Positions 11,169 to 53,990 of a stretch of 64,000 nt of DNA are shown piece by piece (position 1 is the stretch's first letter; every line of letters starts with the position of its first letter). Below the pieces are notes generated by a model. The model did no database searches, was not told the DNA's origin, and saw only the letters and a program-made list of their open reading frames with translations. Source of the stretch: Candidatus Babelota bacterium (GTDB lineage Bacteria; Babelota; Babeliae; Babelales; JABDEC01); assembly GCA_013286795.1 (NCBI GenBank), contig JABDFA010000001.1, positions 38,195 through 102,194 of the forward strand. Direction: 5' to 3'. The position numbers and the translations under genes were made by a program.

Positions 11169-12401
11169 TTAATTTTTATCATATTCATCAAGAGCATCAT
11201 TTAGAATCCGATTTAATTCTGTCGATGGATTAATTTTAACGATACCTGGTTCTGTAGGTGGATTAGAATATGCTTGATTGCTCCAGATTTTTATTTTTCC
11301 ATCATATGATCCTGATGCAAACGTATTTTCTGATAATGCACACAAGCTGGTAAGACCACTTTCATGGGCCTGAAAAGTTTTTATACATTTGCCGCTTTCT
11401 GTATCCCATATTTTTATGGTTTTGTCATAATATCCAGATATAGATACAACTATCTTAGTAGATAATACACATAAATGTTTTGCATCTGTTTCTAATGTTT
11501 TTTCACATTCACCTGTTTCTAAATTCCATATTTTAATCTTGCAATCATCATATCCTGAAACAAGTTTATTTTTTGATAGTATACATAATGTATGGATAGA
11601 ACTATTGTGATCCTTAAGTGTTTTTACGCATTCATTATTATTTAAGTTCCATATTTTTATTGTTCCATCATGTGATGCTGATGCTAATGAATTTTCGGAT
11701 ATGGCACAAAAAGCTGTAATGGAAGATTCATGCTCCGATAAAGTTTGCTCACATTTACCTGTTTTTAGATTAAATATTTTAATTGAATCTTGCTTGTATA
11801 AGTAATTATAAGGCTTATTTTCATGGAAGCTAAAAACAAGTTTATCAGAATTTAATATACATAATATACATTTACCAATATCATTAAATTCAAAAGTTCT
11901 TTCATGTCTACAATATAGCCAATCCTTTTTTACTAAGTCTAAAAAATCTAAATTCCATATATTTATTGTTTTTTTATGAAATGAATGTCCTGATATTAGA
12001 ATATTTTTTGAAGGCGAACATAAGGTATCAATTCGATTTCCCAAAAATTTGGTACTTATACAATTGTAAGTTCCTAAATCCCATATTTTTATGTATCCAT
12101 TATTTGATACTGCTGCTATTTTATTATCATCTAATTTACATAAGGAATCAACGACTTCAAAGCCACCAAGTTCTCTAGCTAATAATTCTTTGCATTCCCA
12201 TTTATCTTCTATTGGATCATATTCTTGAACTAATCTAGCTAAATCATCAATTAAATGCTGGGAAAGACATTCTTGGCGATATCCGGTGATTTTTTGAACT
12301 AATGCAGAAGATAAGTCTTCTTTTTCTTTTGATTCAGACATTGAGTTTATATTAAAAGTCACTACTGAAAGTAATAAAACTATTTTTAGTATATTATTCA
12401 T
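11169..12401 (-). CDS. Secreted WD40-repeat protein with an N-terminal F-box-like motif
   Basis: About seven repeats end in 'IKIWDL/IKIWNL/INIWNL/IKIFNL/IKIWDT'. The leader is MNNILKIVLLLSVVTFNINS. 'HLIDDLARLVQEYDP' lies upstream of the propeller. Confidence 0.85.
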   Translation of the reverse strand: MNNILKIVLLLSVVTFNINSMSESKEKEDLSSALVQKITGYRQECLSQHLIDDLARLVQEYDPIEDKWECKELLARELGGFEVVDSLCKLDDNKIAAVSNNGYIKIWDLGTYNCISTKFLGNRIDTLCSPSKNILISGHSFHKKTINIWNLDFLDLVKKDWLYCRHERTFEFNDIGKCILCILNSDKLVFSFHENKPYNYLYKQDSIKIFNLKTGKCEQTLSEHESSITAFCAISENSLASASHDGTIKIWNLNNNECVKTLKDHNSSIHTLCILSKNKLVSGYDDCKIKIWNLETGECEKTLETDAKHLCVLSTKIVVSISGYYDKTIKIWDTESGKCIKTFQAHESGLTSLCALSENTFASGSYDGKIKIWSNQAYSNPPTEPGIVKINPSTELNRILNDALDEYDKN

Positions 12402-20028: not shown

Positions 20029-20965
20029 AAAAATTATCTTTATTATTATTATAATTTTTTCAAATTCTATTTTAAAATTGTCATCTGTAGATATGTATTT
20101 TTGTACTGCAGCAGATTCAAAATATTTTGATTATCTTGTGAATTTGATAGGAAGTATTCATAAAAATAATTTTGATAATCTAAAAGAAATTGCTGTTTTT
20201 GATATAGGTATGAATAAAGGAGAGTTGGATCATTTAAGTAAAATTCAAAAACTTAAAATATATCAAGTGAATTTAGTTCACCCTGATATTCTAAAACCTT
20301 TTAAAACTTTAAATGAAGGTAAAATGGTGCCTGGTTGGTATGCTTGGAAACCGGTTATAATTAAACAAGCTTTAGATATGTTTCCACAAGTGTTGTGGAT
20401 AGATTCAGGTTCTGTTGTATTAAAGCCTTTAGATGATTTATTTAAACATATTAAACAAAATAATTATTTTCTTTGTACAATAGGTAATGCAACTGAAAAT
20501 GGTAGATACAGAAATCCTGTAGAGTGGCAAACAACACAATATCTGAGAAAAAAATTTCAAATCGATACACCCGACAAAAATTGGATTTTACAGCAAGAAC
20601 CTATAAACGCTTCATTTATAGGAGTATCAAAAGAAGCGCTTGCTGATTTAGTATTGCCTCTTTATGAGTTTGCAAAAGATTTAAGAAATTTTGAGGACGA
20701 TGGGACTACGCCTGGTGGATTCGGTACATCTAGACACGATCAGTCAATTTTAGCTTTACATGTTTATACTAAAGGATTGAGGTTTTTAAAACAGGATTAT
20801 ACTCAAAACAATCCTATGCTTTTGAAAGTCGATAATCAAGAAGTTCCATTTTATATTACCTGGGACAGTGAAAGTGTTTCAGATAAAACCCACATTTTTC
20901 ATTCGAGATTTGATCTGAGATATACTACTCAATATAAACAGTTTGTGAGATATAAGAATGTCTAA
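20021..20965 (+). CDS. Leader-bearing GT-A-like transferase, 'YFCTA' family, copy 2
   Basis: Tandem paralog of copy 1. The start overlaps the upstream stop (AATGTTTAA). The leader is MFKKIIFIIIIIFSNSIL. Confidence 0.6.
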   Translation: MFKKIIFIIIIIFSNSILKLSSVDMYFCTAADSKYFDYLVNLIGSIHKNNFDNLKEIAVFDIGMNKGELDHLSKIQKLKIYQVNLVHPDILKPFKTLNEGKMVPGWYAWKPVIIKQALDMFPQVLWIDSGSVVLKPLDDLFKHIKQNNYFLCTIGNATENGRYRNPVEWQTTQYLRKKFQIDTPDKNWILQQEPINASFIGVSKEALADLVLPLYEFAKDLRNFEDDGTTPGGFGTSRHDQSILALHVYTKGLRFLKQDYTQNNPMLLKVDNQEVPFYITWDSESVSDKTHIFHSRFDLRYTTQYKQFVRYKNV

Positions 20966-22499
20966 GCTAAAACTTATATTTTTGTTATTATTAATATTTT
21001 CAAAAATAAATTGTTTAAAAATAGATAGAGTAATTCTAGCTACTGATAATAATCCAAATTATATCCAGTTTTGGCCCATAGTTTCAAAAGCATGGAAAAA
21101 TATTGTTGGAGTTAAGCCAACTTTAGCTTTAATAGCAGACAAGTCTGTAAAAGTTGATGAAACATTAGGTGATGTAATTCGTTTTGAACCTATTCCTGGA
21201 GTTTCCACCGCATTATATGCACAGTGTATACGTCTTTTACTTCCAGCATATTTTGAGGAAGATGGTTGTATTTTGTCTGATATTGATATGGTTCCATTAA
21301 ATAAAAATTATTTTTTGGATTCAGTAAAAAATGTTTCAGATAATTGTTTTATAACCTATAGACAATGGACAATCGAAACAGCAGGTAATGAAGAAGTTAA
21401 ATTTCCAATGTGTTATAATGCAGCTAAGGGAAAAGTTTTTAAAGAAGTTTTTAAGATTTCCGATCCAAAAGAGATACCAAAAATAATAAAATCTTGGAGT
21501 GCATTGAATCTTGGTTGGAATACAGATGAGATAATTTTATGTAAATCTTTATTTGAATGGAAAGATTATACTACTAGATGTGTCAATTTAGGCCATTCTG
21601 TTACAGATAGAATAGACAGAATAGGATGGGGTTATAATTCTGATTTATTAAAAAAGGGTAATTATGTAGATATGCACTGCCCTAGGCCATATACTAAATA
21701 TAAAAGCTTTATAGACAAAGTTTTAAGTCATATTGGATTAGAAAATCAAATTAATAAAAAACATAAATTTGTTATAGTTACTACATCTTTTAATAATGAA
21801 AAGTGGTATCTGAAAAATTTGGATTCTATTTTTGGCCAGAATTATACCAATTATAGAGTTATATATATAAATGATATTTCTACGGATAAAACTGGAAAAT
21901 TGGTTCAGGAATACATAAGAACAAGATGTTTAGAGTCAAAATGTGCTTATATAGAAAATCAAGAAAAAAAATATCAGGTTCGAAATTTATATGATGCTAT
22001 TCACATGTGTCAAGATGATGAAATAATTGTTACAGTAGATGGTGACGACTGGTTGCCTGATGATAACGTTTTAACAAAGTTAAATAAAATATATAACGAA
22101 AATGATATTTGGATGACCTATGGCCAATATCAAAATTCACAGGGTAAAATTGGAGGAGCTTCCCCATACTCTGATTATGTAATACAAACAAGATCATTTA
22201 GAAAAGATGATTGGCGAGCTACTCATTTAAGGACATTTAAAGCTTTTCTTTTTAAAAAAATAAAAAAAGAAGATTTGATGTACGAAGAAAAATTCTTAGA
22301 TATGGCTGGAGATTTAGCTTTTATGATTCCTATGTTAGAAATGGCCGGTAATAGATCAATGTTTATTCCGGAAGTTTTATATGTTTATAACATAGATAAT
22401 CCATTAATGGAAAACAAAGTTAATGTAGCAAGACAGAATCTTTTAGCTGATATTACAAGAAATAGAAAACAGTATTCTGTTTTAAGTTTGAATAATTGA
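20958..22499 (+). CDS. Two-module glycosyltransferase (N-terminal GT-A-like module plus C-terminal GT2)
   Basis: The N-terminal module carries 'RLLLPAYFE..ILSDIDMVPL' (DxD-like). The C-terminal module is GT2: 'FVIVTTSFNNEKWYLKNLDSIFGQNYTNYRVIYINDISTDKTG' and 'VDGDDW'. The leader is MSKLKLIFLLLLIFSKINC. It is a paralog of 24462-26024. Confidence 0.7.
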   Translation: MSKLKLIFLLLLIFSKINCLKIDRVILATDNNPNYIQFWPIVSKAWKNIVGVKPTLALIADKSVKVDETLGDVIRFEPIPGVSTALYAQCIRLLLPAYFEEDGCILSDIDMVPLNKNYFLDSVKNVSDNCFITYRQWTIETAGNEEVKFPMCYNAAKGKVFKEVFKISDPKEIPKIIKSWSALNLGWNTDEIILCKSLFEWKDYTTRCVNLGHSVTDRIDRIGWGYNSDLLKKGNYVDMHCPRPYTKYKSFIDKVLSHIGLENQINKKHKFVIVTTSFNNEKWYLKNLDSIFGQNYTNYRVIYINDISTDKTGKLVQEYIRTRCLESKCAYIENQEKKYQVRNLYDAIHMCQDDEIIVTVDGDDWLPDDNVLTKLNKIYNENDIWMTYGQYQNSQGKIGGASPYSDYVIQTRSFRKDDWRATHLRTFKAFLFKKIKKEDLMYEEKFLDMAGDLAFMIPMLEMAGNRSMFIPEVLYVYNIDNPLMENKVNVARQNLLADITRNRKQYSVLSLNN

Positions 22500-22509
22500 G
22501 GAGAAGGAA

Positions 22510-23595
22510 ATGAAGAAAATATTAATTTTTCTTATTGCTATATTTAGTACAGGTTTAATCTCTAGCAAATCAATTTTGTTTTATTCAGCAAATTGGGGTG
22601 ATATATTTTCAGATAATATCTCTTATTTTGATGGGTGTCCCATAAGCTCAAATAGAGATGAATGTAAGAAATTTCTATTTAATTTAAGAGCTACGTGTAA
22701 TTACTTAGGTTATGAAGTTAAGCAGGTATTTGATTTAAATAATATTAATAATTCTAATTTTGACTACCTTGTATGCTTTGATCTAAGACCGGAATATATG
22801 AACCAATTACCTAAATTCTCAAAAGAAAAGTTAATCGCATATTTATGGGAACCACCTACAACTTTATTGCATAATTATAATAAATCATATCATGAATTAT
22901 TTTGCAGGATTTTCACTTGGCATGATGATTTAGTTGATAATAAAAAGTATATAAAGTTTTTTTATCCTGTACTTAATTCATTAGATGTTGAAAAAAATAT
23001 AAATTTTAAAGATAAAAAATTATGTACTCTTATTGGGTCAGATAAATCATCGTCTGATCCTAACGAGCTTTATTCTGAAAGAAGAAGAGTAATAGATTTT
23101 TTTGAAAAATTAAATAATAATGATTTTGATTTTTATGGCATGTCCTGGGATAAAACAAAGTATAGAAATTATAAGGGACCAATTAGTACCAAGATTGATT
23201 ATTTAAAAAAATATAAGTTTTGTATAGCTTATGAAAACGAAAATGGCACTAAGGGTTGGGTAACAGAAAAACTATTTGATTGTTTTAATGCTGGTTGTGT
23301 ACCAGTTTATTGGGGAGCGCCAAATATTGGCCAATATGTTCCTAGTAATTGTTATATTGATAGAAAAAAATTTAGAAACACAGAAGAACTTTATCAATTT
23401 ATTAAAAATATTACCGAAGATGAGTATAACGAATATATTAAAAATATTTCTAATTTTATAGTAACTAGTAGTTCTTTTAAATATTCATGGGAAAATTTTG
23501 TTGATATTTTCTGCAAAAATCTTTTACCTGAATATGATAGAGAACTAGTATTTTCAGGACAAAAACTTGAACTTCTAAAGAGAATAGATAATTAA
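22510..23595 (+). CDS. GT10-family fucosyltransferase-like protein with leader
   Basis: 'YKFCIAYENENGTKGWVTEKLFDCFNAGCVPVYWGAPNI' is the GT10 motif. The leader is MKKILIFLIAIFSTGLISS. It is a paralog of the 1-957 gene. Confidence 0.8.
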   Translation: MKKILIFLIAIFSTGLISSKSILFYSANWGDIFSDNISYFDGCPISSNRDECKKFLFNLRATCNYLGYEVKQVFDLNNINNSNFDYLVCFDLRPEYMNQLPKFSKEKLIAYLWEPPTTLLHNYNKSYHELFCRIFTWHDDLVDNKKYIKFFYPVLNSLDVEKNINFKDKKLCTLIGSDKSSSDPNELYSERRRVIDFFEKLNNNDFDFYGMSWDKTKYRNYKGPISTKIDYLKKYKFCIAYENENGTKGWVTEKLFDCFNAGCVPVYWGAPNIGQYVPSNCYIDRKKFRNTEELYQFIKNITEDEYNEYIKNISNFIVTSSSFKYSWENFVDIFCKNLLPEYDRELVFSGQKLELLKRIDN

Positions 23596-26031: not shown

Positions 26032-26991
26032 TTATATTTTATATCTACAATCATCTTGATATTTACTTATTAAATTTTTCCAATAATCAAAATGTAGCTT
26101 TTCTAATTTATATGTCTTATTTTTTATTTCTTTATATTTTTCTTGAAGAAAATTTTCAGTAATGTCAGCCCAATCATTAATAATTAAAACAGGTAAATTT
26201 TCAAAGAGTTGGTCAATTGAAGAGGTTTTAATTATTGGTATAGCGCCTAAATATAAAGCTTCCCAAGTTCTATGGCAATCCAACCCATTCCCTTGTGGAC
26301 TTAAAATAAATTTAGAGTTACATACATCTATTAGATAATCTAAGTAATCTTTTTTGGAATTTACTGTATAACAAAAGTTCTGGTTTTTAAAATACTCTAG
26401 AATTGGCTTGCGAATTTTAGGATTAGTGTCAATATTGAAATTTGAGTATAGAAAACATGTTCGTTCTTTTTTGTCTAAATTTTTTGAATATAGATTACTG
26501 ATAAGAATATCGTAATGTCTTCCCCAATGTTTGTTTTCTAAACCTATTGGTATAGGAATTAATTTTGGATGATTTGATAGGTTGCAATTTTGTCCAAACC
26601 ATGCAAAAATTTTTTTATCTTCAATATAATCGTGAAATTTTCCAGGGACACTAATATCCTCATTATGGGTTACTAGGATATATTTATGTTGAATTAATGG
26701 ATGCATGTATTTAAAAAAAGGTTCTAAAAAATTGCTGTTTACAAAAACAGAATCACCAAGCTTTACGGTTTCAGGCTTAAAGTCAAAATCTGTTTCATCA
26801 AAAATATGATCAGAAAATTTTCTAAAAGTATCTCCGGCAATAAAAGGGTACATGCCTGGTCTTTTAGAATGTACCAAAGGCACATTACATGAAGCTAAAT
26901 AGTTGACAAAAGATTGATCAAATTCTCTCGCTTTCCAAGCATTTAAATAAAAGCTTGTGATTAAAAATAGAAATATAAATTTTATTTTCAT
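26032..26991 (-). CDS. Exostosin-like (GT47-like) glycosyltransferase with leader
   Basis: The C-terminal 'SKFILSPQGNGLDCHRTWEALYLGAIPIIKTS' matches the exostosin-family signature (F.L.P.G....S.R..EAL..GCIPV). The leader is MKIKFIFLFLITSFYLNA. Confidence 0.55.
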   Translation of the reverse strand: MKIKFIFLFLITSFYLNAWKAREFDQSFVNYLASCNVPLVHSKRPGMYPFIAGDTFRKFSDHIFDETDFDFKPETVKLGDSVFVNSNFLEPFFKYMHPLIQHKYILVTHNEDISVPGKFHDYIEDKKIFAWFGQNCNLSNHPKLIPIPIGLENKHWGRHYDILISNLYSKNLDKKERTCFLYSNFNIDTNPKIRKPILEYFKNQNFCYTVNSKKDYLDYLIDVCNSKFILSPQGNGLDCHRTWEALYLGAIPIIKTSSIDQLFENLPVLIINDWADITENFLQEKYKEIKNKTYKLEKLHFDYWKNLISKYQDDCRYKI

Positions 26992-26997
26992 AATAGT

Positions 26998-27636
26998 TTA
27001 TTTTTTTGGGTCAAACCACCAAAAAGTGCTAACTACATGTATATTTTGGTTTAAGTCTTTGGCCATTTTTTCTACGGCTGTTCTTACGCTTGGCCACATC
27101 CAATCATCTCCACTTAAAATACCCCCCGGTTTAAGTTTTTTGTACCAGTTTGAAATATCATCGCATACATCCTCATATTTATGTGAAGCGTCTAGATAAA
27201 TAAAATCAGGAAATAAATTTAATGACTTTACAGCTTCTATACTACTCATTCTTATTGGAACAATCTTTTCTGCCAATCCTAGTTGACGCATGTTAGATAA
27301 AAATAGTGCATATAAATTTGGCAAATATTTTGAATAAACTGGATCATCTTTATGTTCTGGTGACCCGTTCCAAGTATCGATAGCATAAAGGATGCAATTG
27401 TTGGGCATATTTTGTGCTATAAATGATGTAGATAACCCCATCCAAGATCCAACTTCTACTATAGTTTTGGGGTTAATTTGATTCATTATATTTTTTATAG
27501 GCTCTCTGCTATATTCAGAAAACCAACCGTCTAAATTTAAAGGTAATAACTTGATCCATCTGTAGGGTTCCGGGTAATCGCCATTATTTGCGCTAATATT
27601 AAAAAATGCAAAAAATGTTAAAATTAAAAATATCAT
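26998..27636 (-). CDS. Class I SAM-dependent methyltransferase with leader
   Basis: 'IVEVGSWMGLSTSFIA' is motif I. 'IYLDASHKYEDV..LKPGGILSGDDW' is also present. The leader is MIFLILTFFAFFNISA. Confidence 0.7.
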   Translation of the reverse strand: MIFLILTFFAFFNISANNGDYPEPYRWIKLLPLNLDGWFSEYSREPIKNIMNQINPKTIVEVGSWMGLSTSFIAQNMPNNCILYAIDTWNGSPEHKDDPVYSKYLPNLYALFLSNMRQLGLAEKIVPIRMSSIEAVKSLNLFPDFIYLDASHKYEDVCDDISNWYKKLKPGGILSGDDWMWPSVRTAVEKMAKDLNQNIHVVSTFWWFDPKK

Positions 27637-28634
27637 TTTTTATTCTCTTGATTTTTTATGTACCAATCAATAGTTTTCTTTAATCCTTCATCTAAGTTAA
27701 TTTGTGCTTTCCAGCCAAGATTGTTTATTTTGGAAACATCTAATAGCTTTCTTTTCATACCATCAGGTTTGGTTGTATCAAAAATAATTTCTCCTTTAAA
27801 ACCTACAAGATTTTTGATTTTATATGCTAAATCTTTAATAGAAATGTCTTCCCCTCTGCCTACATTAATAATTTCATTGTCCTGATAGTTTTGCATTAAA
27901 AATAAACATGCATCGGCTAGATCCTCAGCACCTAAGAATTCTCTGTATGCGCTTCCAGTTCCCCATACCGTAACAGACTCAAGATTATTGTTTTTTGCAT
28001 TTACAAACTTATTTATTAAAGCAGAAAGCACATGACAATTATTTATATCAAAGTTATCGCCAGGTCCATATATATTAGTTGGCATACAGGCTATAAATTT
28101 TGTACCATGTTGTTTATTGTAAGCTTCACATAATTTTAATCCTGCAATTTTTGCTATTGAGTAAAATTCATTAGTTGGTTCTAAAGGCCCGCTTAATAAA
28201 TAACTTTCTTTAATTGGCTCAGTATAATTTTTAGGATAAATACATGATGAACCTAAAAATAATAGTTTTTTTACTTTGTGTTTATATGCAGCATGTATAA
28301 TATTTGTGGATATCATTAAATTGTCATAAATGAAATCTGCAGGTTTTTCTATATTTGCTTTTATTCCGCCAACTTTTGCAGCAGCTAAAAAAACATATTC
28401 TGGTTTTTCTGATTCAAAAAATCTTTCGACCATTTCTTGATTTCTTAAGTCTAGTTGGTTCGATGTGTAGGTTATAATGTTTTTAAATCCATTATCTAAT
28501 AATTTTTTTACTATTGTAGATCCTACTAAGCCTGTATGTCCGGCAACATATATCTTGGAGTTTTTGTTAAATTCGTTAGAAAATATAATATTGGTTCTTA
28601 AGATAAAAATAATTAACCATGATATTTTGTTCAT
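27633..28634 (-). CDS. GDP-L-fucose synthase family epimerase/reductase (Fcl or ColC-like) with an N-terminal hydrophobic extension
   Basis: It is collinear with the remembered E. coli Fcl sequence: 'IYVAGHTGLVGS', 'VFLAAAKVGGI.AN...PADFIYDNLMISTNIIHAA', 'LLFLGSSCIYPK', 'LEPTNEFYSIAKIAGLKLCEAYN', 'MPTNIYGP.DNF'. About 25 extra N-terminal residues are present (MNKISWLIIFILRTNIIFS). Confidence 0.85.
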   Translation of the reverse strand: MNKISWLIIFILRTNIIFSNEFNKNSKIYVAGHTGLVGSTIVKKLLDNGFKNIITYTSNQLDLRNQEMVERFFESEKPEYVFLAAAKVGGIKANIEKPADFIYDNLMISTNIIHAAYKHKVKKLLFLGSSCIYPKNYTEPIKESYLLSGPLEPTNEFYSIAKIAGLKLCEAYNKQHGTKFIACMPTNIYGPGDNFDINNCHVLSALINKFVNAKNNNLESVTVWGTGSAYREFLGAEDLADACLFLMQNYQDNEIINVGRGEDISIKDLAYKIKNLVGFKGEIIFDTTKPDGMKRKLLDVSKINNLGWKAQINLDEGLKKTIDWYIKNQENKK

Positions 28635-29872
28635 TATTTCCTTTCAAAATAATTATCTATTGTTTGTATTATAAGATCCAGATCTTGTATAGTTAAATCT
28701 TGATGACAACCTACATAAAATCCATTATCATTTATCCATTTTGCAACAGGATAATCCTCTTCTTTGATATTAAACATTTTCTTGTAAATTGGTTGGTTAA
28801 TTAGTGGAAGCATATTGCGTGTTTCTATACCATTATCTTCAAGATAATGAACCAAATTTTTTTTTGGTTCATTAAATAAAACTATAGGAAACATCATAAA
28901 AGCATGTGTACATTCTGGCCTTATTTTTGGTAATTGAAATTGTGCTTGCCATTTTTTAAGACCATTTGTTAAGTATTGGGCATTAAATTGTCTTTTGTTT
29001 ATCATTGGTTGCCAATCTTCCAGTTGGGCCAAACCTAGGGCTCCTTCCATTTCTGTTATTCTAAAGCTGTGACCTATACTAATAAAAGAAAATCTTTTTT
29101 CTATTATTTCTTTGAATTCAACTCCTCTTTTTTTATTATCATCCATTCCTATATATATGGAGTCTCTTCCATGATTTAAAAGAGATCGCATGGCTATTGC
29201 ATACTCTTTATTGTTGGTTATAGATAATCCTCCTACTCCTGTGGTTAAAAGATGTGCCACATATGTTGAAAAGCAGCCAATATCTCCTAAAGTTCCTACA
29301 GGTCTATTTTTGTAGGTAACAAACATTGTTTCACATGAATCTTCAATAATTTTTAGATTATATTTATTTGATATTTCTATTATCGGATCCATATCACAAG
29401 ATAATCCAAATAGATGGACTGGAATGATTGCACGAGTTCTAGAATTTATTTTTTGCTCGATTAACTCAGGATCTATCCCATAATATTCCTTTTCAACATC
29501 TACAAATACAGGTTTCATTCTACAATGTATTACTATATTTGATGTTGCAACAAATGTTATGGCTGGTACTAACACTTCATCATCGTCTTGCCAATTGTGA
29601 ATCTCTTTCATAGCTTGTAAAGCAATTTGTAGTGAGCTTGTTCCACTGTTACTAGTTAAACCGAACTGCGCTCCATGTATTGCTGCAAAATCTCTTTCAA
29701 ATTTTTGTAAAAATGGTCCATAGGATAATCTATTAGAATCTAGAACTTGATTTACATATTCTTTAGCTTTTTTACTTATTTTTAAAGTGCCAACAGAGAC
29801 TTTTATTTCTTCAGCTGAAATAAAGGTTGGTAAACACATACTGATAATTATATACGTTATAATTTTGTACAC
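28634..29872 (-). CDS. DegT/ColD-family PLP/PMP enzyme with His in place of the Schiff-base Lys (probable sugar 3-dehydratase), with a signal peptide
   Basis: It has DegT-family blocks ('VLDSNRLSYGPF..FE.DFA', 'NSGTSSLQIAL', 'IIEDSCETM'). The motif 'CFSTYVAHLLTTGVGG' aligns with the aminotransferase motif 'FSF..NKIITTGEGG', but His207 (codon 29252-29254) occupies the Lys position, as in ColD. The leader is MYKIITYIIISMCLPTFISA. Confidence 0.65.
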   Translation of the reverse strand: MYKIITYIIISMCLPTFISAEEIKVSVGTLKISKKAKEYVNQVLDSNRLSYGPFLQKFERDFAAIHGAQFGLTSNSGTSSLQIALQAMKEIHNWQDDDEVLVPAITFVATSNIVIHCRMKPVFVDVEKEYYGIDPELIEQKINSRTRAIIPVHLFGLSCDMDPIIEISNKYNLKIIEDSCETMFVTYKNRPVGTLGDIGCFSTYVAHLLTTGVGGLSITNNKEYAIAMRSLLNHGRDSIYIGMDDNKKRGVEFKEIIEKRFSFISIGHSFRITEMEGALGLAQLEDWQPMINKRQFNAQYLTNGLKKWQAQFQLPKIRPECTHAFMMFPIVLFNEPKKNLVHYLEDNGIETRNMLPLINQPIYKKMFNIKEEDYPVAKWINDNGFYVGCHQDLTIQDLDLIIQTIDNYFERK

Positions 29873-41223: not shown

Positions 41224-42189
41224 CTATCTTTCTATAAATTGTGGAACATATTCCATATGGGGAGAGTTGTTGTTGATCTTATAAAATTGGCTAATGTCAA
41301 TTTTTAAACCAGATTTAAACTTTGTTAAAAGTTCTTGGTTAGAATATAATCCCATATTGCGGTTAGTAGATTGAGAATAACATAGGTTAAGTGGAATATT
41401 TAAAATCTTAGATTCTGCAAAAAATAAACCCTTTTTATTGTAATCAGATAAGTGATGCCAATAATATTCAAAAGTAGTTGGATTAACCATATTTATTGTT
41501 AATAAATCATTTTTAATATCTTCTTTTTTGTATATTGTCATATCGACAGTATTGGGGTATCTCCAATCTCCACAACTATTATTAAAAGTATACATGCAAA
41601 TATTATTATCAACCAAATTATATTCTGGAAGAGGAGTTGGGTTAATAAACATCATGTATGATTCTTTAATATTAAGTCCAAGTCGCAAATAAAATCCATA
41701 AGCATTAGTTAGTTTTAAAGCTTGCGTGCACTGTAAAATATCTATTTCATCTTTTACTATAATATCATCAACAGCATAGATTATATATTCTTCAGGTGAA
41801 TTAAAAGTGTATTCAAGAGTTAATATTTTAAAATCTGAATAAGGATCATTCCCCTGTTGATGAAATTTATAATGATTAAATCTTTTTTCGACTTCTTTAT
41901 ACGCATCCAAATAATCATGATCTGCTCTAAAAATTATGTGTGTTTCACCTAAATTTTTTACATACTTTTCTATAGATTCAAGAAGCGCATATAATTGTAA
42001 AGGTCTATTGTATGAAAATATAACTAGATCTGCTTTGTTTCCTGCAAATAAGTTTATAAAAATAGTTGAGAATAATGCTACTAAACATAATAATTTTTTT
42101 TTGGATTCGTATATAAGTCCGTTCGCCCTGAGCGATGTCTGAGCGACGAAGGAGTCGAAGACAGAGTCGAATGGGTTAACTATATTCAT
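41224..42189 (-). CDS. GT-A-like glycosyltransferase (paralog of 23595-24458) whose 5' end and start codon lie inside a GC-rich repeat
   Basis: 'ADLVIFSYNRPLQLYALLESI' and 'IYAVDDIIV' are present. The homology-supported body starts at '..KKKLLCLVALFSTIFINLFA', which has no canonical start of its own. In-frame ATGs occur only in or beyond the repeat (42189, 42375, 42384), so the end coordinate is uncertain. Confidence 0.6.
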   Translation of the reverse strand: MNIVNPFDSVFDSFVAQTSLRANGLIYESKKKLLCLVALFSTIFINLFAGNKADLVIFSYNRPLQLYALLESIEKYVKNLGETHIIFRADHDYLDAYKEVEKRFNHYKFHQQGNDPYSDFKILTLEYTFNSPEEYIIYAVDDIIVKDEIDILQCTQALKLTNAYGFYLRLGLNIKESYMMFINPTPLPEYNLVDNNICMYTFNNSCGDWRYPNTVDMTIYKKEDIKNDLLTINMVNPTTFEYYWHHLSDYNKKGLFFAESKILNIPLNLCYSQSTNRNMGLYSNQELLTKFKSGLKIDISQFYKINNNSPHMEYVPQFIER

Positions 42190-42323
42190 AAATATATTTA
42201 TGAATTCCCAGATATTATTTTTAATGAAACATTTAAAGCATAAATTACTTAAATTTTTTACCCATTCGACTCCCTCATTCGACTCGCGTAAACGCTCGCT
42301 CAGAGATCGCTCAGGGCGAACGG
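42119..42323. repeat. MITE-like GC-rich palindromic element (205 bp)
   Basis: The terminal inverted repeats are CCGTTCGCCCTGAGCGAT (42119-42136) and ATCGCTCAGGGCGAACGG (42306-42323). Imperfectly complementary GC-rich arms of about 60 nt flank an AT-rich centre. It is collinear with the 51149-51311 copy. Confidence 0.8.
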
Positions 42324-42433
42324 GATAAAGACAAGTTAATTTAATTTTTATATTAAAAATATGAGTATAATGCATAGTTATCACGAACGGATTTTAAATT
42401 TATCTTCCAACCAAATTAATTCCCTAACAGCTT

Positions 42434-51148: not shown

Positions 51149-51311
51149 CCGTTCGCCCTGAGCGATGTTTGAGCGACGAAGGAGTCGAAAACAGAGTCGA
51201 ACGGGGTTTTTATATTGAAAAATAAATCAAAATTTTTAAAAATTTTTTACCCATTCGACTCCCTCTTCGTCTCGCGTAAACGCTCGCTCAGAGGTCGCTC
51301 AGGGCGAACGG
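51149..51311. repeat. MITE-like GC-rich palindromic element (163 bp)
   Basis: CCGTTCGCCCTGAGCGATGTTTGAGCGACGAAGGAGTCGAA... ...CGCGTAAACGCTCGCTCAGAGGTCGCTCAGGGCGAACGG. Both arms differ from the 42119 copy by only a few substitutions and single-base indels. It is intergenic, 37 nt 3' of the DOT1-like gene. Confidence 0.8.
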
Positions 51312-51347: not shown

Positions 51348-52142
51348 TTATTTTTTGGCTTTTTTAGCAGCTTTTTTAGCTTTACCTTCAAGTTTATATA
51401 TATGAACTGGTGAACCTTCGGACCAAGTCATAGGTAGTTTATATTCTTTTATATGTTTTAGCCCAAAATCTTCATAGTTATCAGGCAAAGCTTTTAATGT
51501 AATTACAGTTAAACCTGGTTTTAATTTTGAAAATCTTTCTGTTAATTTTGCCATCAATTCTTCAGGATAACAGGTTGAACACATATAAATCACAGTGGCG
51601 TCGCTAATATTTTCTTTGGCTATATCGCCATTGTATAATTCAAATTTTCTGTCTTTAGTTATTAAATTCTTCTTTTCTAAATTTTTTCTTATAGTTTCTG
51701 CGTGGTGATTCCTGGTAGGAGAAAGTTCTATTCCTACAACTTTCTTAAAAGGATAATCCAGATACCCTTGTACAAGAACTTTTCCTGTTCCTGAGCCTAG
51801 ATCATACAAAACGTCTGTTTTTTTAATATTTAAATCATCTAAAACTTTTTTTAATGAATCAAACTTAATTTCTCCATAAACTGGACTGCCGCCAGTTTTT
51901 GTAACCATAGACCGTTCTGTATCACTGATTTGATGTTTAATGTTTTTATACATCTCATCTATTAAATCGGATGTGTTTATTTTCTTGCTTGCAGGTATAT
52001 CAGTTGTTACTTTTGCAGTTTTAGAAAGATTTGGCTTTATAGCGCAATTTTTAGTATTGTCTTTTTTTGCCTTACAATCAATAACATTATTCCATAATAT
52101 TAATGACATCGAAAATAATAAAAATTTTTGCATAACATTCAT
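51348..52142 (-). CDS. Secreted DOT1-like class I SAM methyltransferase with a Lys-rich C-terminal tail
   Basis: 'VYGEIKFDSLKKVLDDLNIKKTDVLYDLGSGTGKVLVQ', 'VGIELSP..HHAET' and 'YNGDI....ISDATVIYMCSTCYPEELMAKLTERFSKLKPG' are collinear with the remembered DOT1L core (YGETSFDL.., [13 protein letters not shown], GDF..., [13 protein letters not shown]...L.ERF..MK.G). The leader is MNVMQKFLLFSMSLILWNNV. The tail is 'GKAKKAAKKAKK*'. Confidence 0.65.
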   Translation of the reverse strand: MNVMQKFLLFSMSLILWNNVIDCKAKKDNTKNCAIKPNLSKTAKVTTDIPASKKINTSDLIDEMYKNIKHQISDTERSMVTKTGGSPVYGEIKFDSLKKVLDDLNIKKTDVLYDLGSGTGKVLVQGYLDYPFKKVVGIELSPTRNHHAETIRKNLEKKNLITKDRKFELYNGDIAKENISDATVIYMCSTCYPEELMAKLTERFSKLKPGLTVITLKALPDNYEDFGLKHIKEYKLPMTWSEGSPVHIYKLEGKAKKAAKKAKK

Positions 52143-52221
52143 ATTTTACTTCCTATAGTTTTGAATTACCACTTAGTAATAAATTTATACTTTCAAGTAA
52201 CTTTATTCAAGAAAAGCCTTT

Positions 52222-52251
52222 AAGAACAAAGAAAAACCCCGGTGTTTAATA
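52222..52251 (-). terminator. Rho-independent terminator of the 52286-53377 gene
   Basis: On the minus strand, CCCCGGT-(11 nt)-ACCGGGG is followed by TTTTTCTTT. Confidence 0.6.
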
Positions 52252-52285
52252 TAAACCGGGGTATAACTTTAGTTAAATTGATTAG

Positions 52286-53377
52286 TTACCGACCATTACC
52301 AAGATCTTCTCTTCTTTTTGCCATTGCTGCTTTTAAAGCGCCCATAAGATCAGCTTTTGCTTCTTGTTTTACTTCCTCACGAACTGGCTTTTTCGCTGCA
52401 GGGATTATCTTTATAGATGGACTAGCTATAGTTTTTGATATTGTTTCTTCAAGATCACCTATTGGTGGAGCATCTGGTATTCCTAATGTACTAATATCTT
52501 CTTGTACTGCTTCTACTATTGCACTTGTAACTTCTTTTTGTTCTTGTGGTGTTAATTGAGGATTTTCAGTTACTATTTTTGTTGCTTCTTTACGTACTAC
52601 ATTTCTAATATCTTCAGCTGCCAACGCTCTATTTCTAGTTACTATCGTATAATCTTCGGGCATTGTTTCTACTACCATTGGAGTAGGTGGCACAGGCATT
52701 GGTGTAGGAGTAACTTTAGTTGTGTCAGTTTCTACTTCAATCGGTATAGAAAAATTAGGAATAACTAGTTCTTCTGGCGTAAAATCTTTTTCGTGAAGAC
52801 TACTAAATGCTGTTGTGCATAATCCTTGTACAACATCACTTTGTAAAACACCAATAATAAATCCTAAAATTTTAATCATTGTATTTTTAGCTGTATCCAC
52901 TAGAGATGAAGGAAGTTTGAGTTTTTTAACTTGCGTTATAAGTTTTTCTATTATTGTATTACTAAAAGTTTTAATTAAAGATGGTAATTTTTGACATATA
53001 AGTGTAGGATCCTCTTCGTATCTTTCGAGTGCATGTCTTTTATTCAATTCATTTTTAATCGTTGGGCAAATAACATCTTTAAATACGTTAATTCTTATAA
53101 CACCAGGAATAATTTCTATAGATCCTTTTGGTTTAAAGTCAGAACCCTTTACACTTACTCCACCTATGAATTCCTTAAGCCACGCTACAATTTCTTTTTT
53201 TGTAGATCTTGGACTAGGGTAATCAGGTGTTACTACTCCAGCAAGATTAACTCCAGTTAATTGGTCTAATTTGCCAAATTGATCTGTAATTGTTTTACAG
53301 AATTCAGCTCTTGCATGTACCAAAGAATTACATACAATAGTCGTGAAAACAGTAATAAATAACAACATTTTTTTCAT
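52286..53377 (-). CDS. Hypothetical secreted protein with a Pro-rich segment and a basic amphipathic C-terminus
   Basis: The leader is MKKMLLFITVFTTIVCNSLVHA. 'TPTPMPVPPTPM' is present. The C-terminus is 'KADLMGALKAAMAKRREDL'. Confidence 0.55.
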   Translation of the reverse strand: MKKMLLFITVFTTIVCNSLVHARAEFCKTITDQFGKLDQLTGVNLAGVVTPDYPSPRSTKKEIVAWLKEFIGGVSVKGSDFKPKGSIEIIPGVIRINVFKDVICPTIKNELNKRHALERYEEDPTLICQKLPSLIKTFSNTIIEKLITQVKKLKLPSSLVDTAKNTMIKILGFIIGVLQSDVVQGLCTTAFSSLHEKDFTPEELVIPNFSIPIEVETDTTKVTPTPMPVPPTPMVVETMPEDYTIVTRNRALAAEDIRNVVRKEATKIVTENPQLTPQEQKEVTSAIVEAVQEDISTLGIPDAPPIGDLEETISKTIASPSIKIIPAAKKPVREEVKQEAKADLMGALKAAMAKRREDLGNGR

Positions 53378-53630: not shown

Positions 53631-53990
53631 TTAGCTTTGACTAGGTCTTCTTACGTCTTTTTGTTTATTTGCAGGTTCTACAAATAATAGCGAAATAGCC
53701 TGTGCGGCAGCAGCCCATCCGGCTCTCATTAGGGTTGCGTTCCAATCGATTTTTCCATTGTCTCCAGATGTTCCTGCTATTAATACCAAGCTGATCAATG
53801 AACTCAATGCTACGCCTTGTCCTTTGCTTAAACTGCCATTTTTAACGGCAGCAAAAGAGATTAGCCTTGATAGTCCCCCAAAGCCAACGCCATATAATAA
53901 ATCATTTGAATTTATGTCAGCTTTTAGATTAGTTGCTGCAGAGCTTAACAATCCACCAAGTAAAATTGGTAAAAGAAATTTTTTGTTCAT
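53631..53990 (-). CDS. Small Gly/Ala/Ser-rich membrane or secreted protein
   Basis: The leader is MNKKFLLPILLGGLLSSAATNLKA. Gly-zipper-like hydrophobic stretches are present. Confidence 0.5.
   Translation of the reverse strand: MNKKFLLPILLGGLLSSAATNLKADINSNDLLYGVGFGGLSRLISFAAVKNGSLSKGQGVALSSLISLVLIAGTSGDNGKIDWNATLMRAGWAAAAQAISLLFVEPANKQKDVRRPSQS

Follow-up and report, generated by a model that had tools for sequence, protein, structure and literature searches.

The closest described system to the locus analyzed here is LpDot1 (lpp3025) of Legionella pneumophila, a stand-alone DOT1 core from an intracellular bacterium of protists. LpDot1 is present in all Legionella species and is a virulence factor that methylates K518 of SFPQ, a splicing factor of the nucleus, and other nuclear RNA-processing proteins rather than histones, affecting paraspeckles and splicing in infection; calf thymus histones and recombinant H3 were left unlabeled by it (bioRxiv 10.64898/2026.01.11.698932). 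The same work describes F131 of human DOT1L as positioning H3K79 and being required for its methylation, loop 273-286 as touching H2A/H2B, and helix 319-331 as binding ubiquitin (bioRxiv 10.64898/2026.01.11.698932). The DOT1 tree of a 2022 review places Legionella clades with protists, Megaviridae, Amoebophilus, and "Candidatus dependentiae" (PMC10117894), and Mycobacterium tuberculosis Rv2067c methylates H3K79 of free H3, outside nucleosomes, with a structure described as unlike that of DOT1L (PMC10739865). We analyzed a 64,000-nucleotide stretch of DNA (the window) from a Candidatus Babelota bacterium (assembly GCA_013286795.1, contig JABDFA010000001.1, positions 38,195 to 102,194 of the forward strand), in which a gene at 51348..52142 encodes a 264-aa protein that is almost certainly a true DOT1-family class I methyltransferase. 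On balance, its sequence slightly favors the view that it would be a Sec-exported, host-directed, minimal DOT1-type protein-lysine methyltransferase. The DnaK of the window shares 75-78% identity with DnaK proteins assigned to Candidatus Babeliales, Dependentiae, or TM6, and the named DOT1 homologs are likewise from Dependentiae/Babeliales bacteria.

The coding sequence lies on the minus strand, a point left unsaid in an earlier, sequence-only reading of this DNA, and its translation runs from MNVMQKFLLFSMSLILW... to ...EGKAKKAAKKAKK before the stop codon. The open reading frame (ORF) gives exactly the 264-aa protein which that reading had described, with a hydrophobic leader, a class I methyltransferase core, and a basic C-terminal tail, EGKAKKAAKKAKK (Table 1). 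The Shine-Dalgarno-like box just before the first ATG supports this start and hence the hydrophobic leader as the true N terminus. An identical copy of the protein is recorded in NCBI, JGI, and Logan assemblies. After leader removal, the mature protein would measure ~240 aa and ~27 kDa.

Family membership was supported by profile, sequence, and structure comparisons. The Pfam DOT1 profile (PF08123) matched aa 82-222 on profile positions 16-163 of 205 with an E value of 8e-21 and 75 bits against a gathering score of 23, and every other methyltransferase family in the same search fell under its own cutoff, as the sequence-only reading had anticipated when it proposed this comparison. All 120 homologs listed carry PF08123. 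A sequence search of the PDB returned only DOT1-type proteins at the top, led by 9ne1_A (1e-14) and sixteen human DOT1L constructs (~1e-12), with a Sulfolobus aKMT (3e-10) and yeast Dot1p (1e-4) further down; the HMMER alignments to the DOT1L chains agree with three stretches that the earlier reading had matched to DOT1L. In an AlphaFold2 model built from a 100-sequence alignment, the mean predicted local distance difference test score (pLDDT) was 88, with residues 51-250 above 90 and residues 1-50 and the last 14 low. The structural comparison likewise came out as the earlier reading had expected, since all 50 Foldseek matches listed against the PDB belong to the DOT1 family (LpDot1, DOT1L, Dot1p, Trypanosoma brucei DOT1A, and aKMT). 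The first of them was 9ne1, "a bacterial DOT1L methyl-transferase" (E value of 9e-15; template modeling [TM] score of 0.77 on the target), which we identify as LpDot1 because its sequence holds the loops RDAIEYVYGE and INSSTL described in the LpDot1 preprint. An archaeal protein-lysine methyltransferase model, NF041081, was also matched (E value of 2.5e-12), at 47 bits and thus short of its cutoff of 200.

The earlier reading had regarded DOT1 as essentially eukaryotic and the window protein as a nucleomodulin of a different class, and neither view holds. A HMMER search of 1.84 billion cluster representatives found 3644 relatives at an E value of ≤1e-3, 887 at ≤1e-10, and 103 at ≤1e-30, and bacterial and giant-virus homologs are known; a family of this size is therefore not essentially eukaryotic. 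There is no new class either, since bacterial DOT1-like effectors and Dependentiae homologs are already in the literature: LpDot1 has been characterized and solved (9ne1), and the Dependentiae homologs stand in the review tree (PMC10117894). That review was the sole result of a full-text literature search for Dependentiae together with DOT1, and it is silent on the Sec leader as a family trait, the MCSTC/R144 signature described below, the basic arms, the tandem copies, and the leader contrast between lineages. The window protein is an uncharacterized member of the known bacterial DOT1-like effector kind, of the LpDot1 type.

LpDot1 is the closest solved structure by sequence (33% identity over 155 aa at the E value given above) and the best structural match too. 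Both proteins retain motif I and the conserved Trp, and both lack DOT1L F131, loop 273-286, and the C-terminal helix. Both are also near neutral, with a core charge of +2 in the window protein and a surface described as relatively neutral in LpDot1 (bioRxiv 10.64898/2026.01.11.698932). They differ in that LpDot1 has no Sec leader, Legionella effectors traveling via Dot/Icm, whereas the window protein bears both a leader and a pair of basic, disordered arms; in motif IV, which is MCSTC in the window protein and INSSTL in LpDot1; and in substrate, which is SFPQ K518 for LpDot1, whereas the methylation targets of the window protein are predicted only. DOT1L and Dot1p share its Pfam family, fold, and S-adenosylmethionine (SAM)-binding motifs, but DOT1L has 1537 aa against the ~240 aa of the mature window protein, and only the latter carries a bacterial export leader. 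The giant-virus DOT1 proteins are short and single domain like the window protein, one of them (L032) with a lysine-rich N terminus instead of C terminus. Sulfolobus islandicus aKMT4 (5fa8/5fad) is also a minimal DOT1-related class I protein-lysine methyltransferase (E value of 3e-10; TM score of 0.81 on the target), but it is cytoplasmic, leaderless, and only 160 aa long, whereas the window protein is larger and bears a leader. The SET nucleomodulins (Legionella RomA/LegAS4 and Chlamydia NUE) and Rv2067c embody the same concept of a bacterial methyltransferase sent to host nuclear proteins; however, RomA/LegAS4 and NUE have the other, SET fold, Rv2067c is class I but lies outside the DOT1 family, and all of them travel by type IV, type III, or mycobacterial secretion, in contrast to the plain Sec leader of the window protein.

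Residue conservation was counted over 224 single-domain relatives. In gapless HMMER alignment, D114-x-G-x-G-x-G120 corresponds to D161-G167 of DOT1L (with D161, G163, and G165), E139 corresponds to E186, and G172-D173 corresponds to G221-D222; motif I, E139, and G172 are each at least 96% conserved, and the exception is D173, which is D or N. W240 is invariant in the family, aligns with the Trp of LpDot1, and probably corresponds to DOT1L W305. Y249 is likewise invariant and is the probable counterpart of DOT1L Y312.

Around this shared machinery, several parts of DOT1L are absent. G84 stands opposite F131 in an ungapped alignment. Between the last aligned residue and the conserved Trp lie 21 residues in the window protein (L219 to W240) and 33 in DOT1L (272 to W305); the segment is thus short by 12 residues, which means that the 14-residue loop 273-286 is absent. 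The protein stops 15 residues past Y249, where DOT1L has helix 319-331 and the window protein a low-confidence Lys/Ala tail of 14 residues, and therefore has no counterpart of the ubiquitin-binding helix. The HMMER alignment begins only at residue 111 of DOT1L, so that the DOT1L N-terminal region is unmatched.

The catalytic Asn of DOT1L, N241 in V-N241-N-F, is opposite C188, and the expected Asn is absent. Among the relatives, this position is C in 171, A in 23, and N in 11, within a family motif of [YF]-M-C-S-T-C-[FY]-[SP]. R144 is invariant in all 224 and is Leu in LpDot1 and Pro in DOT1L. Since the CSTC motif and the invariant R144 differ from both DOT1L and LpDot1, the MCSTC/R144 proteins form, on alignment evidence, a distinct DOT1 subfamily with its own conserved active-site surroundings. 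A redox switch through a disulfide or metal site at C188-x-x-C191 was considered and dropped because the two cysteines do not covary (CC in 151, AC in 20, and CA in 15 relatives). In two relatives, P0010 and P0019, an additional motif I segment (LGSGVGKVTVQAL...) precedes the YGE motif and the usual place is empty of motif I, which points to a domain rearrangement or permutation or to an assembly artifact.

The N terminus has the layout of a Sec-type signal peptide, with an n region (MNVMQK), an h region (FLLFSMSLILW), and a c region (NNVIDC). V-I-D-C at aa 20-23 was rejected as a lipobox because of the Asp at position -1. A leader-like segment is present in 174 of the 224 single-domain relatives, some with canonical cleavage sites (...AATAQA|DE and ...NWAMA|EP) and others with lipoboxes (ISGC and VTGC). 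With so many leaders, many of them textbook, export of the catalytic domain is a family trait, and Sec export of the window protein itself appears likely from its sequence. Leaders are also frequent around the gene: 45 of the 65 nonoverlapping ORFs of ≥100 aa in the window open with a signal-peptide-like hydrophobic segment, and those without one include the housekeeping proteins DnaK, YchF, and CarD and a MerR-type regulator. In Chromulinavorax destructans, a cultured member of the Dependentiae, signal peptides occur on 44% of coding sequences and 78% of ankyrin proteins, and Sec is the sole export system described (PMC6561590). The leader share of the window exceeds this reported 44% (PMC6561590). 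The leader is a general label of nonhousekeeping proteins in the phylum and is unspecific for the DOT1 gene.

Nearly all of the net charge of the protein is concentrated in two disordered arms. The core has a net charge of +2, compared with +7 for the linker (aa 24-56), which is unconserved in the family alignment, and +6 for the tail (aa 251-264). That the tail is unusually basic, as the sequence-only reading had claimed, was borne out by comparison with the 65 window ORFs, among which it is the C terminus richest in K/R: K or R fills 7 of its last 13 positions, and no other ORF has more than 5. The proteome background is 12.6% K+R (9.6% K). Among 107 relatives, 22 have a K/R-rich tail of 10 aa or more, in some cases with long KKEKK-type runs, and other relatives end directly after the last strand or have an acidic tail. 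The tail holds a single K-K-x-K match (aa 260-263), which is weak as evidence for a nuclear localization signal because the proteome holds so much lysine. A 27-kDa protein is small enough to enter the nucleus by diffusion through pores. In composition, the arms are similar to the tails of linker histones and might bind nucleic acids (DNA or RNA) or acidic surfaces; they are nonhomologous to the lysine-rich segment of DOT1L and are absent from most relatives.

The family is abundant in Dependentiae. A genome scan with a 24-sequence alignment and one narrow peptide pattern gave 25 loci, a lower bound that is silent on universality in the phylum. Tandem DOT1 genes occur in other Dependentiae-like genomes (L029, 8001-9410; L030, 8001-9466; L034, 5035-6523), and two or three DOT1 domains can share one polypeptide (P0121-P0123, P0157, and P0195). 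Long relatives (480-1035 aa) contained tandem DOT1 domains or DOT1 with another methyltransferase domain and offered no informative fusion partner. When the ORFs of the 25 loci were compared with the window by BLASTP, zero neighbors were shared. The Pfam-annotated contexts vary between genomes (bamA/penicillin-binding protein [PBP], dnaN-recF, and alr), and the neighborhood therefore gives no functional clue.

Two contigs from giant-virus metagenome-assembled genomes (MAGs), L032 and L033, encode the same subfamily, with CSTC, R144, W240, and Y249 (Table 1). The L032 copy has no leader, adjoins genes for an EF-Tu-like GTPase and an MIF4G-domain (eIF4G-like) protein, and is 53% identical to a leader-bearing bacterial relative, P0142, which stands in a bacterial context (iPGM and an EamA transporter). 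A Hyperionvirus "DOT1 domain-containing protein" (A0A3G5AC17) also matches the model (E value of 4e-15). Homologs in MAGs labeled Gammaproteobacteria or Francisellaceae are leaderless, and a leaderless subclade of ~200 aa with a CSTA motif is closest to LpDot1 (38% identity).

Action on host proteins is, by a modest preference, the best-supported mechanism. The window protein would be made with a Sec-type leader, and its mature form would be a near-neutral core flanked by two disordered lysine-rich arms. It may leave the bacterium alongside the many leader-bearing, eukaryote-like proteins of the phylum, a step that presumes export past the periplasm, and could then methylate lysines of host (protist) proteins with host SAM, the place of action and the kind of substrate both being presumptive. 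The basic arms might keep the enzyme bound to polyanions, for instance chromatin or RNA-protein particles, or might aid nuclear entry. By analogy, the enzyme would work like LpDot1 on nonhistone nuclear proteins and unlike DOT1L on ubiquitylated nucleosomes. Host-cell action is supported by the contrast in leaders between lineages, since the leader is present in a phylum that relies on Sec and absent from the gammaproteobacterial MAG homologs and the closest viral copy; most simply, all of them act in the eukaryotic cell, a pattern to be expected if every lineage has its own means of getting the enzyme there. A SAM-dependent enzyme outside the bacterial cytoplasm would, moreover, depend on SAM from an external source. 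The secreted host effector proposed in the sequence-only reading thus stands in part: DOT1 membership, an export-type leader, a strongly basic tail, and eukaryote-like neighbors in the genome of an obligate protist associate were found, whereas a new class and nucleosomal H3K79 as the target were not supported.

Several observations weigh against host-directed action. Leaders are also found on enzymes that are normally cytoplasmic, including a DegT aminotransferase, a GDP-sugar epimerase-type enzyme, glycosyltransferases of families 2, 10, and 47-like, and an O-methyltransferase, and because a leader is the norm in this genome, it is weak evidence for the DOT1 gene itself. The mature N terminus opens with KAKK, and basic residues right after the cleavage site hinder Sec export in Escherichia coli. 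Some relatives have lipoprotein or long membrane-anchor leaders that would hold them at the bacterial envelope, the gene of one relative sits between bamA and a PBP gene, and we know of no route across the outer membrane for Dependentiae. The viral part of the lineage contrast is open to the objection that giant-virus MAG bins can hold contaminant contigs, though L032 carries an MIF4G gene. Finally, DOT1L N241 is replaced by Cys, so that even the lysine specificity of the window protein is only presumed; mutants of DOT1L at N241 are reportedly inactive.

Further claims about place and target appear less probable. It is conceivable, though rather unlikely, that the MCSTC-type DOT1 proteins are phylum-wide Sec-exported writers of the Dependentiae that have been exchanged with giant viruses and act, through their H1-like arms, on histones or other nucleosome-bound proteins of host chromatin. 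If so, no earlier nucleomodulin would have reached its host without a type III, IV, or VI machine, and the catalytic motif would be an altered one, with a Cys for the DOT1 Asn.

We consider it unlikely that the enzyme instead stays on the bacterium, in the periplasm or as a lipoprotein or surface protein, and methylates envelope proteins of its own, for example as a shield against host ubiquitylation. Such a role would have a parallel in Rickettsia, whose PKMT1/2 methylate OmpB and shield it from host ubiquitylation. The lipobox and membrane-anchor leaders and the close relative encoded directly after bamA would fit it, as would the very lysine-rich proteome (9.6% K) and the wide distribution of the gene in the phylum, often by the housekeeping genes dnaN/recF and alr, which looks more like that of a core gene than of a mobile effector. 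Leaderless members of the subfamily in giant viruses, which lack such an envelope, argue against it, and so do the lack of SAM synthesis in the periplasm and the failure to find a conserved gene neighborhood across the 25 loci.

Only slightly less probable is that a host-directed enzyme methylates free, nonnucleosomal histones or abundant basic or acidic proteins of host chromatin, as Rv2067c does with H3. Rv2067c provides a precedent as a secreted class I methyltransferase acting on nonnucleosomal H3K79 (PMC10739865), and the nucleosome-docking parts lost from the window protein would be irrelevant for a free substrate. However, Rv2067c lies outside the DOT1 family and differs from DOT1L in structure (PMC10739865), and neither calf thymus histones nor recombinant H3 was labeled by LpDot1, the nearest relative for which data exist.

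The sequence-only reading had favored a mimic of DOT1L in the host nucleus that writes H3K79, or its protist equivalent, on nucleosomes with the lysine tail as a nuclear localization signal or anchor, and we now regard this as improbable. The protein is a true DOT1-family member, with W240 and Y249 as probable matches of W305 and Y312, and its basic arm beside the core recalls the lysine-rich segments that, in DOT1L and yeast Dot1p, are reportedly needed for nucleosome binding. Residues that stay invariant in the subfamily across hosts as unlike as amoebae and stramenopiles would also fit a very conserved target such as a histone. Against this stand the replacement of F131 by G84 and of N241 by C188, the loss of loop 273-286 and helix 319-331, and the unmatched DOT1L N-terminal region; LpDot1, which is equally reduced, is inactive on histones, and the basic tail is missing from ~80% of relatives.

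Least likely is an N-out/C-in membrane anchor that would leave the catalytic domain in the bacterial cytoplasm to act on bacterial proteins, for example DNA-binding ones, as aKMT4 does: KAKK right behind the hydrophobic segment fits the positive-inside rule, many cofactor-dependent enzymes of the window have similar N termini, and NF041081 is weakly similar (E value of 2.5e-12), but that model scored 47 against a cutoff of 200, the h region with its 11 hydrophobic residues falls short of the length of a membrane span, cleavable signals or lipoboxes of textbook form occur in many relatives, and the leaderless viral and gammaproteobacterial relatives speak against an anchor as they do against an envelope role.

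Host-directed methylation by a DOT1-type enzyme would be of interest beyond this genome. The Dependentiae are widespread, almost uncultured, and parasitic on protists, and to our knowledge none of their presumed effectors has a known function. The DOT1-type enzyme is among the few of these with a clear, assayable biochemistry and a characterized cousin, LpDot1. The subfamily offers a good case for asking how leader-bearing, eukaryote-like Dependentiae proteins reach the host and which conserved eukaryotic target drew three unrelated kinds of intracellular parasite.

Table 1. Coordinates of the DOT1 gene, its parts, and other features in the window, with the two giant-virus copies on their own contigs
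Feature	Position	Strand	Basis or remark
CDS (coding sequence), DOT1-family methyltransferase	51348..52142 (stop codon 51348-51350)	-	ORF list, Pfam DOT1, AlphaFold2 model
Shine-Dalgarno-like AGGAAG, 6 nt before ATG	52149..52154 (+ strand coordinates)	-	Direct sequence reading
Leader, aa 1-23	52074..52142	-	Hydrophobicity scan
Disordered basic linker, aa 24-56, net charge +7	51975..52073	-	pLDDT 51-64, charge count
DOT1-type catalytic core, aa 57-250, net charge +2	51393..51974	-	pLDDT >90, Foldseek, Pfam aa 82-222
Motif I D114-L-G-S-G-T-G120, putative SAM binding	51783..51803	-	Alignment to DOT1L D161-G167 and LpDot1
Motif IV variant C188-S-T-C191, replacing DOT1L N241-N-F-A	51570..51581	-	Ungapped HMMER alignment to DOT1L
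Lysine-rich tail, aa 251-264 (LEGKAKKAAKKAKK), net charge +6, plus stop codon	51348..51392	-	Charge count; low model confidence
GC-rich palindromic repeat, 163 nt, in convergent intergenic gap 3' of DOT1 gene	51149..51311	.	Terminal inverted 17-mers
Terminator-like hairpin CCCCGG, 13-nt loop, CCGGGG, T-run	52230..52261	-	Ends upstream gene 52286-53377
Glycosylation-like gene, GT2 (glycosyltransferase family 2)	20958-22499		
Glycosylation-like gene, GT10 fucosyltransferase	22510-23595		
Glycosylation-like gene, GT47/exostosin-like	26032-26991		
Glycosylation-like gene, Methyltransf_24 O-methyltransferase	26998-27636		
Glycosylation-like gene, NAD-dependent GDP-sugar-type epimerase	27633-28634		
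Glycosylation-like gene, DegT aminotransferase	28634-29872		
Giant-virus DOT1 copy, 253 aa	L032 53-814		44% identical to window protein
Giant-virus DOT1 copy, 197 aa	L033 4905-5498		Hydrophobic N terminus

The DOT1 gene lies in a ~5-kb block between ychF and dnaK that is bounded by a GC-rich palindrome and a degenerate arm of it at 56188-56204. The GC-rich repeat that the sequence-only reading had noticed 3' of the gene is real and begins 36 nt past the stop codon. Its identical inverted 17-mers would be expected by chance only 0.01 times, and the element folds into a long hairpin (-90 kcal/mol; z score of -11.9). A second full copy lies at 42119-42323, the genome being otherwise AT rich. The palindrome is a possible miniature inverted-repeat transposable element and possibly acts as a transcription stop. 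An Rfam scan of it gave nothing at gathering score, the best families being microRNA precursors at 26 bits against 95, and these hairpin-shaped, subthreshold matches were rejected as a known RNA element. A SAM-alpha riboswitch match inside the DOT1 coding sequence (16.8 bits against 36) was dismissed as chance. The 42-kb copy and the 56-kb arm fall in the 5' ends of two ORFs (41224-42384 and 54909-56264) that were called mechanically and probably begin farther downstream. A short-read contig of the same organism (L001) covers only the ychF-dnaK block, which would fit assembly breaks at the repeat if the element is multicopy.

On the other side of the gene, a terminator-like hairpin with a T-run ends the upstream gene, and the DOT1 gene is therefore its own transcription unit. 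Scans with promoter and terminator consensus sequences found nothing above chance; this hairpin was not listed because its loop exceeds 8 nt. Besides the DOT1 gene, the block encodes two leader-bearing proteins without a family, a leucine-rich repeat (LRR)-RING protein, and an ankyrin protein. The first two (52286-53377 and 53631-53990, both minus strand) lie upstream of the DOT1 gene and have no significant Pfam family, and the larger holds a proline-rich stretch, TPTPMPVPPTPMVVETMPED. The LRR protein (54165-54902, plus strand) bears a leader and a RING finger (Pfam zf-RING_2; E value of 4e-7). The ankyrin-repeat protein (54909-56264, minus strand) has RING/U-box-like CPVCR...CC and CPLCR motifs and no Pfam RING match. 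Judged by their motifs, both are candidate mimics of host ubiquitin ligases.

Farther away in the window, ~20 kb (19060-39600) hold paralogous leader-bearing proteins that resemble a glycosylation toolkit (Table 1). The hydrophobic N termini of these glycosylation-type enzymes might serve as Golgi-like anchors; alternatively, export to the host might account for them. An internally repeated, leader-bearing ORF of 410 aa (11169-12401, minus strand), with DNA repeats 123-432 nt apart (families D9, D17, and D20), may encode a beta-propeller-type repeat protein.

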